Of a stretch of 5,639 nt of DNA, positions 1,708 to 3,599 are shown piece by piece. The stretch is taken from the IMG/VR virus record IMGVR_UViG_2563366968_000011. One strand, given 5' to 3'. How positions within the stretch are numbered: position 1 is the first letter of the stretch; each line of letters begins with the position of its first letter. The notes under the pieces are model-generated. The model worked only from the letters and a program-made list of their open reading frames with translations, was not told the origin of the DNA and made no database searches. This DNA comes from a virus (lineage: Duplodnaviria; Heunggongvirae; Uroviricota; Caudoviricetes). The translations under genes were made by a program, and so were the position numbers.

Positions 1708-2199
1708 ATGCAAATTTCACCGGTTACTCTTCGTGTTGCGAAGGCGTTTATATCCAGACATCACCGACACAATAAACCCCCGGTGGGGCATAAATTCAGC
1801 ATTGGTCTGAGAAATGATGCCGGAGAATTGATAGGTGTGGCGACAGCCGGTAGACCTGTTGCACGACATTTGGACGATGGATTAACGCTTGAAGTAAATC
1901 GCACATGTACCACAGGAGAACGCAACGCTAACAGCGCGCTTTATGGTGCTGTCTGGCGGGCAGCAAAGGCTATGGGTTATCAACGTTGTATTACGTACAC
2001 CCAGGCAGATGAATCAGGAGCATCTCTCCGCGCAGCTGGTTTTGTTCGTGTGAAAGAGCTTCCTCCAAGAAAAAGCTGGGCGGAATCAAGCGTCGCCCTG
2101 CGGAGTAAACGCGATCCGGTCGGAAACGGTGGTGTTCCTCGTGTGCTCTGGGAAATCAGGAGAATGAGTACCACTGGCATTCGCATCAAAGGAGAGTGA
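1708..2199 (+). CDS. hypothetical protein, possibly GNAT-fold (acetyltransferase-like)
   Basis: ATG at 1708 lies 5 nt downstream of AAAGGAGAG (1694..1702); the GTG at 1702 in the ORF track sits inside that SD. The pattern …LTLEVNRTCTTGERNANSALYGAVWRAAKAMGYQRCITYTQADESGASLRAAGFVRV… loosely fits GNAT motif A/B topology, but the canonical R/Q-x-x-G-x-G/A loop is not clearly present, so the fold call is tentative. Confidence 0.6.
   Translation: MQISPVTLRVAKAFISRHHRHNKPPVGHKFSIGLRNDAGELIGVATAGRPVARHLDDGLTLEVNRTCTTGERNANSALYGAVWRAAKAMGYQRCITYTQADESGASLRAAGFVRVKELPPRKSWAESSVALRSKRDPVGNGGVPRVLWEIRRMSTTGIRIKGE
2174..2199. repeat. 26-bp gene-junction repeat, copy 2 (CTGGCATTCGCATCAAAGGAGAGTGA)
   Basis: Identical to 1680..1705. 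It encodes the C-terminal GIRIKGE and stop of ORF 1708..2199 and the SD for ORF 2201..2650. Confidence 0.9.
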
Positions 2200-2200
2200 T

Positions 2201-2650
2201 ATGACCACTATTACCAGAGAAAGCTCGAAGATTAAATCATTCATCAATGGCTTCCTGAGCGACCCAGCGCACGATAACCAATCCTCAGACAGCCTGCTTG
2301 CCAATGTGTTTCGTATCGCACAGGCATCGCTGGAAGCAGAGCCGATAGCGTGGCGATATCGCTATGTGAAAAAAGGCGTTACGGACTCTCAGGGGGAGCA
2401 GTGGGTTGGTGACTGGAAATATGTACCGACAAAAGAGGATTGCAACGACAGGCCGAACTATGAAATTCAGGCGTTATTCACCGCTCCACCTGTGCCACTG
2501 ACACCAGAAGGATTGATTAAAGCAGTGCGCTTCTATGAACAGGTTAAGCGTGAAAATCCGCCAGTCGAAACCGGAGCATGGAAAGACGCTGTTGACTGGG
2601 TGCTCAAAGAGGCTTGCCAGGCTGTAAACATTGGTACCAAAGGAGATTGA
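2201..2650 (+). CDS. hypothetical prophage protein, paralogous to the N-terminal region of the next gene
   Basis: ATG at 2201 follows the upstream TGA (2197..2199) by one base and is preceded by AAAGGAGAG. It shares the motifs SLEAEP(I/V)AW and APPVP with the downstream ORF. Confidence 0.6.
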   Translation: MTTITRESSKIKSFINGFLSDPAHDNQSSDSLLANVFRIAQASLEAEPIAWRYRYVKKGVTDSQGEQWVGDWKYVPTKEDCNDRPNYEIQALFTAPPVPLTPEGLIKAVRFYEQVKRENPPVETGAWKDAVDWVLKEACQAVNIGTKGD

Positions 2651-2660
2651 TATGAGCACT
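2631..2660. repeat. degenerate third copy of the junction sequence (…CAAAGGAGATTGATATGAGCACT)
   Basis: CAAAGGAGA-T-TGATATGA matches junction copy 2 (CAAAGGAGAGTGATATGA) at all but one base. The upstream protein ends …TKGD and the downstream protein begins MST, against MTT after copy 2. Confidence 0.7.
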
Positions 2661-3599
2661 TTTACCGACAAAGAACTGATTAAAGAAATCAAAGAGCGCA
2701 TAGGCAGCCTGGACGTGAGAGACAATATTGAGCGCCGGGCTTATGAAATAGCGTTAGCCTCGCTGGAAGCAGAGCCGGTGGCATGGGTAATGGCTGACGA
2801 CCTTAGAGATAATGCAATTGTATCTACCCCGGCCTACCCATGTCTGGATGATGCGAAAGAGCGAACAATTGGCAGTTTGATTGCTTTGTACGCCGCTCCG
2901 CCTGTGCCGGTAATACAGGCTGATGTCGCGCAAGCAATTGAAAATCTCAAGCAGAAGTTAGTGGAGTGCAATCGCTATAACTACTGCGCAGATGCAGTTA
3001 AAGATGTTGAGGATGCCAGCCGCGTCTTGGCACTCCAAAATCAAAATATGTCAGCGCCGATAACGCCGGAGGCCATTGAAAACGCAATTGAATACATCCG
3101 CAGTATCGCTTTTCACATCGATGAAGACGATTACCACGGCAAACATATTGCGTATTTCATGCGACAAGCATTGGCCTGGCTGGAAGGGCATTCATGCAGC
3201 GACGACAGACTGGGTAAAGCCGAGAATCAAACAGTACACGGCAACCAGGCTGCCGAATCCAATCGCGGTAATGAGTGGACCGGCAATCCTGATATTGATA
3301 ACGCCATCATCATGCTCGATCGCATAGATACGCTGGAAAGTTGCGATGATGACCGTATTGAGGCGGTTAAGGCTGTTTTGCGTAGACTGGCTGGCAACTA
3401 TCCGGTAACTCCGGATGGTTGGATAAGCTGTAGTGAGCGAATGCCCGATCAAGATGATTGGATTTTAATTTATTCAAAGCACGGTGAGTATATGGCAGGC
3501 CAGGTGCAAGGGGAATACGTGGAGTTGAGCGACGGCACTTTATCGTGGTTAGGGAACGCCTTGTTCTGGATGCCTCTACCAGAACCGCCGCAGGGGTGA
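2652..3599 (+). CDS. hypothetical prophage protein with DUF551-like C-terminal domain
   Basis: ATG at 2652 follows the upstream TGA (2648..2650) by one base and is preceded by AAAGGAGA; the TTG at 2631 in the ORF track is rejected. The N-terminal region is paralogous to the previous ORF, the middle is acidic, and the C-terminus (…PDGWISCSERMPDQDDWILIYS…WLGNALFWMPLPEPPQG) matches my recollection of the DUF551 phage domain. Confidence 0.65.
   Translation: MSTFTDKELIKEIKERIGSLDVRDNIERRAYEIALASLEAEPVAWVMADDLRDNAIVSTPAYPCLDDAKERTIGSLIALYAAPPVPVIQADVAQAIENLKQKLVECNRYNYCADAVKDVEDASRVLALQNQNMSAPITPEAIENAIEYIRSIAFHIDEDDYHGKHIAYFMRQALAWLEGHSCSDDRLGKAENQTVHGNQAAESNRGNEWTGNPDIDNAIIMLDRIDTLESCDDDRIEAVKAVLRRLAGNYPVTPDGWISCSERMPDQDDWILIYSKHGEYMAGQVQGEYVELSDGTLSWLGNALFWMPLPEPPQG

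Follow-up and report, generated by a model that had tools for sequence, protein, structure and literature searches.

Gene order and the linker at the gene junctions

The window (the whole stretch of 5,639 nt analysed here) contains, downstream of an Ea22-like gene, three consecutive open reading frames, hereafter called genes A, B and C. They lie on the same strand and are real, as are the repeats at their junctions. The genes, the junctions and the gap that follows them are as follows:

963-983, plus strand: degenerate fourth junction, AAAGGAGG, in the last codons (..KGGNQ) of a YfdS-like ORF
1684-1710, plus strand: linker copy 1 (Ea22-like gene/A), with C-terminal codons ..IRIKGE, the Shine-Dalgarno (SD) sequence AAAGGAG, a 2-nt spacer and the ATG of gene A
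1708-2199, plus strand: gene A, ORF of 163 aa
2178-2203, plus strand: linker copy 2 (A/B), the same as copy 1 through the stop, with a 1-nt spacer
2201-2650, plus strand: gene B, ORF of 149 aa
2629-2654, plus strand: linker copy 3 (B/C), a diverged variant encoding ..IGTKGD, with a 1-nt spacer
2652-3599, plus strand: gene C, ORF of 315 aa
3600-3665, no strand assigned: intergenic gap of 66 nt after gene C, the conserved right boundary of a variable slot, with a DUF4222 gene next

The junction repeat occurs three times in the window, starting at positions 1684, 2178 and 2629, and its core, YCAAAGGAGAKTGAKA, is found three times against 0.00 expected in shuffled sequence. The linker has the form GCATCAAAGGAGAGTGA-n-ATG, in which the C-terminal codons of the upstream gene (..IKGE), a Shine-Dalgarno site and the stop codon are combined in one element. 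The initial annotation had placed the SDs within the junction repeats, and this is borne out, AAAGGAG being part of the repeat. The stop-to-start distance of 1 nt that it had given for the block holds at A/B and at B/C; at the entry to gene A, the stop of the Ea22-like gene (TGA at 1703-1705) is followed by a 2-nt spacer (TGA-GA-ATG).

These features do not set the block apart from its surroundings. Tight coupling, once taken as its mark, is common outside it: upstream genes overlap as well (ATG..TGA at 633-642; GTGA at 980-983), the latter being the stop/start overlap by which the degenerate fourth junction leads into the Ea22-like gene. The repeat does not delimit the block on its upstream side, as had been suggested, but brackets every gene in it. 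The gap at 3600-3665, described earlier as the sole intergenic one, is merely the largest, further gaps of 18 nt (4047-4064) and 33 nt (4320-4352) being present; neither an Rfam family nor, on the plus strand, a promoter-like site was detected in it. Scans for promoters and terminators, a composition profile and an Rfam scan yielded nothing particular to the A-B-C block.

Beyond the window, the exact linker 17-mer was found in more than 120 viral contigs, where it joins at least 40 different upstream C-termini to at least 45 different downstream N-termini; in 116 of 127 cases, the start codon is located 1 nt past the stop. Gene A is flanked by the linker on both sides in lambdoid, Rac-like, P2-like and plasmid loci, and the homology between these contexts stops exactly at the ATG. 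The linker thus stitches genes into one translationally coupled operon, and it serves as a patch of homology for gene swaps between phages, plasmids and integrative and conjugative elements (ICEs). Short conserved boundary sequences have been described in lambdoid phages such as HK620 (Clark et al. 2001; Susskind & Botstein 1978; both as cited in PMC3029335), where they likewise mark the start or stop of homology in mosaic genomes. The linker of the window, in addition, supplies an SD and the codons for the upstream C-terminus, and it is common to P2-like phages, plasmids and an ICE.

Independent occurrence of the three genes in E. coli prophages

Rather than making up a functional cassette, genes A, B and C are accessory genes of an E. 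coli prophage that are shuffled independently of one another. In a set of 5,426 complete E. coli genomes, and at a coverage of at least 80%, gene A is present in 154, gene B in 33 and the window's allele of gene C in five, but all three are found jointly in only three; because of these counts, they cannot be regarded as a co-travelling unit. The initial annotation had proposed a three-gene mobile cassette and had asked whether the genes travel together. They do not: an identical A protein (WP_001167293.1) is encoded by prophages of the lambdoid, Rac-like and P2-like kinds as well as by a plasmid, gene A has other neighbours in P2-like, Rac-like, plasmid and ICE contexts, and nin regions carry B and C without A, or B by itself.

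That the three genes nonetheless form one defence, anti-defence or lysogeny-modulating operon moving as a cassette is, in our estimation, extremely improbable. Such an operon would agree with their adjacency, common orientation and translational coupling, as well as with the 99-100% conservation of the trio in the three genomes that have all of it. Against this stand the genome counts for A and B as compared to the trio, the separate occurrence of B with C and of B alone, and the variation in the neighbours of gene A over five kinds of element. Neither is there a neighbour of A conserved across phyla in 66 related loci, which were gathered with the closer of two gene A alignments: the top "neighbours" in the clustering of these neighbourhoods were antisense artefacts or genes of Clostridia T4SS elements. 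PADLOC-DB 2.0 returned no family at E ≤ 0.1 for proteins A, B or C, and a PADLOC scan of all nine window proteins gave nothing useful.

The genes are best understood from their place in the genome. A locus identical to the window (100%) from base 148 onwards has the gene order repressor, yfdP-Q-R, a hypothetical gene, Ea22, A, B, C, DUF4222, xis, int and mlrA. What the region holds is the usual mosaic "ea" cargo of a lambdoid prophage of the CPS-53 type, inserted next to mlrA; it has the same backbone as CPS-53 (KpLE1) of E. coli K-12, with yfdP-yfdQ-yfdR upstream. The block belongs to the early-left (exo-xis or "ea") operon, as three accessory genes each travelling on its own. It is placed, like the exo-xis region of lambda and Stx phages and the ea genes of P22 (Ea22, Eaa), between the recombination genes on one side and xis-int on the other, and both regions hold non-essential early genes as well as mosaic proteins with portable C-terminal domains, DUF551 among them (PMC10834534, PMC7093339, PMC3824215). 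The members that have been studied, ea22, orf60a, orf61, orf63 and ea8.5, are nevertheless not homologs of A or B. Known defence genes, about which the initial annotation had asked, were not seen in this slot of related prophages at mlrA; the relatives have other small hypothetical genes there. An IS1 located upstream in the window may keep the early promoter from driving expression here.

Modular proteins encoded by genes B and C

Genes B and C encode acidic, sub-genically mosaic proteins of the Eaa/YfdT/YfdS type, composed of shuffled modules:

2288-2542, plus strand: gene B, SLEAEP..APPVP module (residues 30-114), common to gene C
2507-2650, plus strand: gene B, C-terminal module (residues ~103-149)
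2652-2780, plus strand: gene C, YfdT-type N module
2781-2885, plus strand: gene C, variable cassette
2886-2909, plus strand: gene C, LYAAPPVP anchor
2910-3056, plus strand: gene C, optional module
3057-3446, plus strand: gene C, near-invariant core
3417-3593, plus strand: gene C, DUF551, with a variable interior at 3447-3566

The mosaic 149-aa product of gene B belongs to phrog_660 and has no Pfam match; its C-terminal module is the end of the gene located upstream of A in P2-like phages. Gene C specifies a 315-aa Eaa-like mosaic protein (pI 4.46, net charge about -27), homologs of which are named "Eaa prophage protein". It is an intact ORF, which PGAP splits into a pseudogene fragment and a CDS with an internal start. 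Its residues 256-314 match DUF551 (Pfam PF04448) over profile positions 1-68 of 68, with 43.7 bits against a gathering threshold of 22, and its first 42 residues are 88% identical to YfdT; similarly, the ORF at 633-983 has its first 42 residues in common with YfdS. Genes B and C had been called paralogous, and this is correct for ~85 N-terminal residues (29% identity, E = 4e-9), the remainder being unrelated. Queried by sequence with all three proteins, and by profile for A and C, the PDB returned no significant match, so that neither B nor C has a PDB relative detectable by this means, and the AlphaFold model of gene C is poor (pLDDT 46.8).

Most probably, the B and C proteins would work through contacts with other proteins during host takeover. 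By analogy, their role could perhaps lie near that of their nearest studied relatives, YfdS and YfdT, which inhibit DnaA-dependent replication initiation together with YfdQ and YfdR: YfdR binds DnaA, and multicopy yfdQR with either yfdS or yfdT inhibits initiation (PMC4776307). Gene C resembles the CPS-53 YfdQ-YfdR-YfdS-YfdT cluster in its YfdT-type N-terminal 42 residues and its YfdS-type DUF551 C-terminus (PMC4776307), but only these short modules are common, the homology ending at SLEAEP, and the 115-residue conserved core of gene C is absent from YfdS and YfdT. Alternatively, B and C could, instead of regulating replication initiation, be anti-defence or decoy proteins, such as DNA mimics, with hypervariable cassettes that track diverse host defence targets. 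The strong acidity of gene C, the placement of both genes in the early operon, and the variable cassettes between conserved anchors (35% conservation for residues 44-78 of gene C versus 95-98% for the core) would suit this role. We consider it unlikely, as recombination among alleles explains the variability equally well, neither protein is similar to any known anti-defence or PADLOC family, and the model of gene C offers no usable structure.

Gene A and its relation to phage Mu Mom

The initial annotation had seen in the first protein a possible GNAT fold, and its family assignment agrees with this. Gene A matches the NCBIfam model NF045478, "XF1762 family protein", with 204.7 bits (E = 5e-61; cut-off, 50 bits), residues 3-136 aligning with profile positions 2-130 of 143. 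It also matches PHROG 1384 (phrog_1384), "Mom-like DNA modification protein", at 4e-42, a group that Mu Mom itself matches at 8e-84; RefSeq phage records already name gene A homologs "Mom-like". Gene A is a clear member of this family, and nothing sets it apart from the other members. The protein is very basic (pI 10.9). Its relevant parts are the following:

1708-2157, plus strand: gene A, conserved core (residues 1-150)
1762-1764, plus strand: gene A, H19, equivalent of Mom H58
1900-1902, plus strand: gene A, R65, equivalent of Mom R111
1933-1935, plus strand: gene A, S76, equivalent of Mom S124
2167-2199, plus strand: gene A, tail MSTTGIRIKGE, partly encoded by the linker

The XF1762 family comprises ~3,300 clusters at 50% identity, found in prophages, plasmids, ICEs and T4SS elements from Proteobacteria to Actinomycetes and Clostridia. 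The 66 loci related to gene A are hosted by prophages, ICEs and T4SS elements, and one ICE carries a copy 88% identical to it. XF1762 proteins keep 50-65% identity across phyla, which argues for a universal substrate. In the literature on XF1762 and "Mom-like" proteins, we found no experimental characterisation of the family.

Phage Mu Mom is a Gly-tRNA(Gly)-dependent adenine N6 carbamoylmethylase by which the phage evades restriction; it makes N6-carbamoylmethyl-adenine in double-stranded DNA, and two of its residues, R111 and S124, are indispensable (PMC13219725). The first of these is peculiar to Mom homologs and not shared by GNAT proteins at large (PMC7261163). The structure of Mom (PDB 8bv8) is the nearest solved one to the GNAT core of gene A, although it is unreachable from gene A by PDB sequence search alone. 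Aligned by hhalign, the XF1762 profile and the Mom family profile give an E-value of 2.8e-4 at a probability of only 41%, a value reached only with the family profile, the single Mu Mom sequence giving 1.3%. At this 41% probability, Mom H58, E108, R111, N121, S124 and G156 are paired with conserved H19, E62, R65, N73, S76 and G104, and R65 (Mom R111) is invariant and S76 (Mom S124) at least 90% conserved within XF1762, though again in an alignment of only 41% probability. The Pfam model of Mom, PF25680, scores 22.4 bits with gene A (E = 1.1e-4), below its gathering threshold of 27.1, in a match confined to residues 2-110; some close XF1762 homologs bear precomputed PF25680.2 hits. Mu Mom gave no match to the XF1762 model.

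The two proteins thus share the GNAT core, the arginine of the E-[LV]-N-R motif, the RNxxS serine and the histidine H58/H19; neither has a canonical CoA P-loop; and both are basic, stand-alone proteins of a mobile element. Between its last two strands, Mom has an HTH-like insertion (residues ~175-209) needed for activity. At the same topological place, gene A has a shorter extra segment of ~26 residues (119-144), modelled as two short helices with pLDDT 52-60, in which W124, S127, S128, R135, D136, G139, G141 and G142 are conserved; it has no alignable similarity to the Mom insertion. There are further differences. Gene A is ~80 residues shorter. Essential R151 of Mom has no equivalent in it, falling in a four-residue alignment gap, nor has Y159, which is aligned with L107; Mom Y59 is aligned with R20, and D149 with D101, a position variable within XF1762, the adjacent E102 being conserved. 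No ORF resembling com, the translational activator upstream of mom, accompanies gene A, the upstream gene being Ea22-like in the window and a phrog_660 gene in P2-like loci. The operon of gene A is an early one, while mom is expressed late and under tight control. Finally, the gene A family extends to conjugative elements and many phyla.

From these sequence comparisons, we infer as the best lead that gene A encodes a compact Mom-like nucleic-acid acyltransferase directed against restriction. It is a stand-alone, basic and compact GNAT enzyme of the XF1762 family, which forms a sister group to phage Mu Mom, and like Mom it would attach an acyl group, probably derived from an aminoacyl-tRNA, to a base in the DNA of the element that carries it. 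The modification would be timed to lytic growth or transfer; so modified, the DNA would be spared restriction on reaching the next host. It is possible, and we propose it tentatively, that XF1762 proteins represent a second, compact and far commoner branch of Mom-type enzymes, which hypermodify nucleic acid using charged tRNA or another non-CoA donor. Since gene A belongs to this Mom-related family, the earlier suggestion that the block is a sensible place to seek an anti-defence function was reasonable.

A conventional acetyl-CoA-dependent GNAT acting on a host or phage protein or on a small molecule (such as an antibiotic or a polyamine) instead of DNA is an alternative that we find doubtful. 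No Pfam Acetyltransf family matches gene A at E ≤ 0.1, and its β4-α3 loop, TGERNANS (residues 69-76), is like the PRNSES of Mom and unlike the Q/RxxGxG/A pyrophosphate loop; the invariance of the Mom-specific arginine, the very basic nature of the protein and its almost exclusive location on mobile elements also speak against it. A GNAT toxin of the TacT/AtaT/ItaT kind, acetylating aminoacyl-tRNA and held in check by a small neighbouring gene, would fit gene A in size and fold, and charged tRNA is handled by Mom-type enzymes, too (PMC13219725). The 87-aa phrog_1714 gene that follows A in many E. coli loci could be taken for the antitoxin, but we rejected it as a partner, absent as it is from the window, Kapi1 and the ICE, and from loci outside E. 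coli. As, moreover, the window neighbours are the Ea22-like gene and B and not an RHH/DUF1778-type antitoxin, no partner is conserved across phyla in the 66 loci, and PADLOC and Pfam gave no toxin match, we hold the toxin to be very unlikely. Taken jointly, the explanation we favour, and consider reasonably probable, is that of linker-joined mosaic ea cargo in which A would be a Mom-like anti-restriction enzyme and B and C would serve in host takeover.

As a cassette, the block is of no importance, and the stretch is a routine mosaic of prophage accessory genes. It does, however, illustrate neatly how coding sequence, Shine-Dalgarno site and stop are united in a short linker, by which single genes hop among unrelated phage types, plasmids and ICEs while translational coupling is kept. 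The tRNA-dependent DNA hypermodification by Mom has been worked out only recently, and the family most closely related to Mom, XF1762, is both very large and strongly conserved. If XF1762 proteins do form a second branch of Mom-type enzymes, momylation-like anti-restriction chemistry would be common among mobile elements instead of being a peculiarity of Mu.

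Prophage setting and gene junctions

The window, the early-left arm of an E. coli prophage, is 100% identical to the complete genome NZ_CP195804 from base 148 to its end. There, a LexA-type repressor gene, yfdP, yfdQ, yfdR, a hypothetical gene and an Ea22-like gene are followed by an XF1762 gene (gene A), a hypothetical gene (gene B), a DUF551 gene (gene C), a DUF4222 gene, a 44-aa ORF, xis and int, and then by chromosomal mlrA. At the left edge, an IS1 element is inserted 42 nt into yfdR (148–642 adjoining); it is absent from three near-identical complete genomes and could cut off the downstream genes, A–C included, from the early-left promoter.

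Features of the window
1–147: IS1 end (terminal 147 nt, including the InsB C-terminus; Pfam DDE_Tnp_IS1, 4e-21)
963–983: fourth junction, degenerate, in the style of the junction repeat
1708–2199: gene A, genuine ORF
2201–2650: gene B, genuine ORF
2652–3599: gene C, genuine ORF

In the Ea22-like protein, the C-terminal domain (residues ~166–216; 1475–1600) has a Walker-A-like motif, GFTGCGKS, and weakly matches models of P-loop kinases, adenylyl-sulfate kinase among them (E 0.02–0.03, far under the cut-offs).

Gene A starts at the annotated ATG at 1708, 7 nt past an AAAGGAG site; GTG 1702, the alternative of the ORF caller, was rejected, as it lies too near the Shine-Dalgarno site. Three copies of the ~38-nt junction repeat, at 1684, 2178 and 2629, share a core, YCAAAGGAGAKTGAKA, found three times against 0.00 expected from shuffles. 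The final codons of the upstream protein (..IRIKGE or ..IGTKGD), its TGA stop and the Shine-Dalgarno site all lie within the repeat, and the next ATG follows after 1 nt (2 nt at the Ea22/A junction). The ORFs, repeats and 1-nt junctions of the initial annotation are real, but the tight coupling attributed there to a three-gene unit is operon-wide: genes farther upstream overlap one another, which together with the degenerate fourth junction makes it a property of the whole operon and not special to A–C.

Nor does the repeat delimit the block, as had been proposed, since the linker stands both before and after gene A in lambdoid, Rac-like, P2-like and plasmid loci alike. When the contexts of gene A are aligned, similarity stops exactly at the ATG past the linker. 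The exact 17-nt linker sequence GCATCAAAGGAGAGTGA (1688–1704 and 2182–2198) occurs in more than 120 viral contigs (L083–L202), a lower bound, and among those listed it links at least 40 distinct upstream C-termini with at least 45 distinct downstream N-termini. In 116 of the 127 cases among the matches listed, 1 nt separates the stop from the start codon that follows. This behaviour agrees with a proposal on lambdoid mosaicism, that of “short conserved boundary sequences” (Clark et al. 2001; Susskind & Botstein 1978; both cited in PMC3029335).

Distribution of genes A, B and C

Genes A, B and C do not travel together. At a query coverage of at least 80%, gene A is present in 154 of 5,426 complete E. 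coli genomes (169 places, 20 of them on plasmids), gene B in 33 and the window allele of gene C in 5, while the whole block occurs in 3. One and the same A protein (WP_001167293.1) recurs in surroundings that are not related to one another: it sits in the lambdoid ea region, in a Rac-like prophage's nin region, in P2-like prophages with gpA/ParM on one side and the portal gene on the other, and beside traL on a 58-kb plasmid. Further copies occur in the P22-like phage Kapi1 (97% identical) and in a ParB/STY4528-type integrative element (88%). Among the lambdoid, Rac-like, P2-like and plasmid elements, nucleotide identity of gene A is 98–100% (window against comparison loci L002, L004, L005 and L006), implying very recent exchange of gene A singly between unrelated element types. 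Conversely, B and C occur without A in the nin region of another prophage, and B occurs alone, with a methyltransferase gene after it.

An 87-aa protein (phrog_1714) is encoded directly after gene A in the P2-like, Rac-like and plasmid contexts (L002, 5496–5759; L004, L005, L006 and L007, ~3496–3759); it has no Pfam or NCBIfam match, and its gene is absent from the window.

In the same-backbone prophages at mlrA that we compared, the slot between the Ea22-like and DUF4222 genes holds other small genes, fragments or nothing, and no recognised defence system. The initial annotation was largely correct in its details; the data do not support its reading of three coupled genes that move as one unit, as the genes are independently scattered in different contexts. 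The A–B–C region is ordinary mosaic accessory cargo.

Modular composition of genes B and C

For gene B the PHROG match is phrog_660, and Pfam gives none; for gene C it is phrog_60, with DUF551 (43.7 bits) at the C-terminal end. The suggested paralogy of the two holds for ~85 N-terminal residues only (29% identity, E 4e-9), a region bounded by the anchors SLEAEP[VI]AW and APPVP. The C-terminal half of gene B recurs, nearly unchanged, at the end of the gene that precedes A in P2-like phages; the same modules thus occur in different order among phages.

Gene C is mosaic below the level of the gene, as an alignment of 27 homologs demonstrates.

Segments of the gene C product and mean identity to the window protein
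1–43: conserved N module, 88%
44–78: variable cassette, 35%
79–86: LYAAPPVP anchor, 80%
87–135: optional module, 63%
136–265: near-invariant core, 95–98%
266–305: variable interior of DUF551, 67%
306–313: WMPLPEPP anchor, 97%

PGAP splits gene C into a “DUF551 pseudogene fragment” and an internal-start CDS (L001, the locus matching the window, 11505–12452). The ORF is unbroken (315 aa) and full-length homologs exist, some called “Eaa prophage protein” and some, annotated elsewhere, 99% identical, so the split is an annotation artefact. The product is strongly acidic (pI 4.46; 55 D+E against 28 K+R), like published Ea22 C-terminal domains. Its AlphaFold model is unusable (pLDDT 46.8), and we found no solved structural relative.

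Gene C resembles YfdT of the K-12 prophage CPS-53 over its first 42 residues only (2652–2780; 88% identity), the similarity ending abruptly at SLEAEP; likewise, the ORF at 633–983, after yfdR, resembles YfdS over its first 42 residues only (83%), with an abrupt end (comparison locus for both, L082, 2139–2806). In K-12, YfdR binds DnaA, and replication initiation that depends on DnaA is inhibited by multicopy yfdQ and yfdR combined with yfdS or with yfdT (PMC4776307). This result is the sole experimental handle on proteins of this kind, and weak ground for giving gene C a function.

Gene A and the Mom family

Gene A belongs to a known, named family, NCBIfam XF1762 (204.7 bits; cut-off 50), and its link to Mom, the DNA-modifying anti-restriction protein of phage Mu, is already in public annotation: several RefSeq phage records label an XF1762 homolog “Mom-like”. 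Gene A matches PHROG 1384, “Mom-like DNA modification protein”, at 4e-42; Mu Mom matches that PHROG too, at 8e-84. Since the XF1762 model does not pick up Mu Mom and gene A scores just under the Pfam Mom threshold (22.4 against 27.1 bits), XF1762 is, judged by these profiles, a sister family to Mom and not Mom itself.

XF1762 is a mobile family of very large size, with 5,663 clusters at 90% identity, and at 50% it has 3,313 representatives. Homologs with 50–65% identity to gene A occur in Actinomycetes, Paenibacillus, Clostridia, Chloroflexi and Betaproteobacteria. Of 50,697 phage records, only 32 carry a homolog. In Clostridia, homologs lie among T4SS genes (VirD4, TrbL/VirB6, VirB4-type ATPase, CHAP hydrolase). 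These Clostridia/Oscillospiraceae conjugative-element loci (L033, L036, L046–L051, L056, L059–L062) also have a SpoVG-like gene beside the homolog and, in several, a radical-SAM-like gene directly downstream. Across 66 loci examined, homologs of gene A have no conserved neighbour; the protein therefore acts alone.

Gene A has a Mom-like fold, and Mom motifs are conserved in a profile–profile alignment of the two families (E 2.8e-4, probability 41%, 120 columns).

Mu Mom residues and their counterparts in gene A
H58: H19, conserved
E108-x-N110-R111: E62-x-N64-R65, R65 invariant
R120-N121-x-x-S124: R72-N73-x-x-S76, N73 and S76 at least 90% conserved
G156: G104, invariant in both families
R151: no residue (4-residue gap)
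Y159: L107, not conserved
Y59: R20, not conserved

The arginine at R111 is kept among Mom homologs and is not general in GNATs (PMC7261163). Neither family has the canonical CoA pyrophosphate loop. Mom has an essential HTH-like insertion (residues 175–209) without alignable counterpart in gene A, which has at that place a shorter, low-confidence segment of ~26 residues with conserved residues of its own. The gene A product is strongly basic (pI 10.9, net charge about +14).

We read gene A as a compact Mom-like acyltransferase that would work on nucleic acid: its fold and conserved motifs are demonstrated, its donor, acceptor and biological role inferred. Most plausibly, it would modify the DNA of the element itself and so confer resistance to restriction. 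What remains of interest is the possibility that the very widespread XF1762 family carries out Mom-like chemistry.
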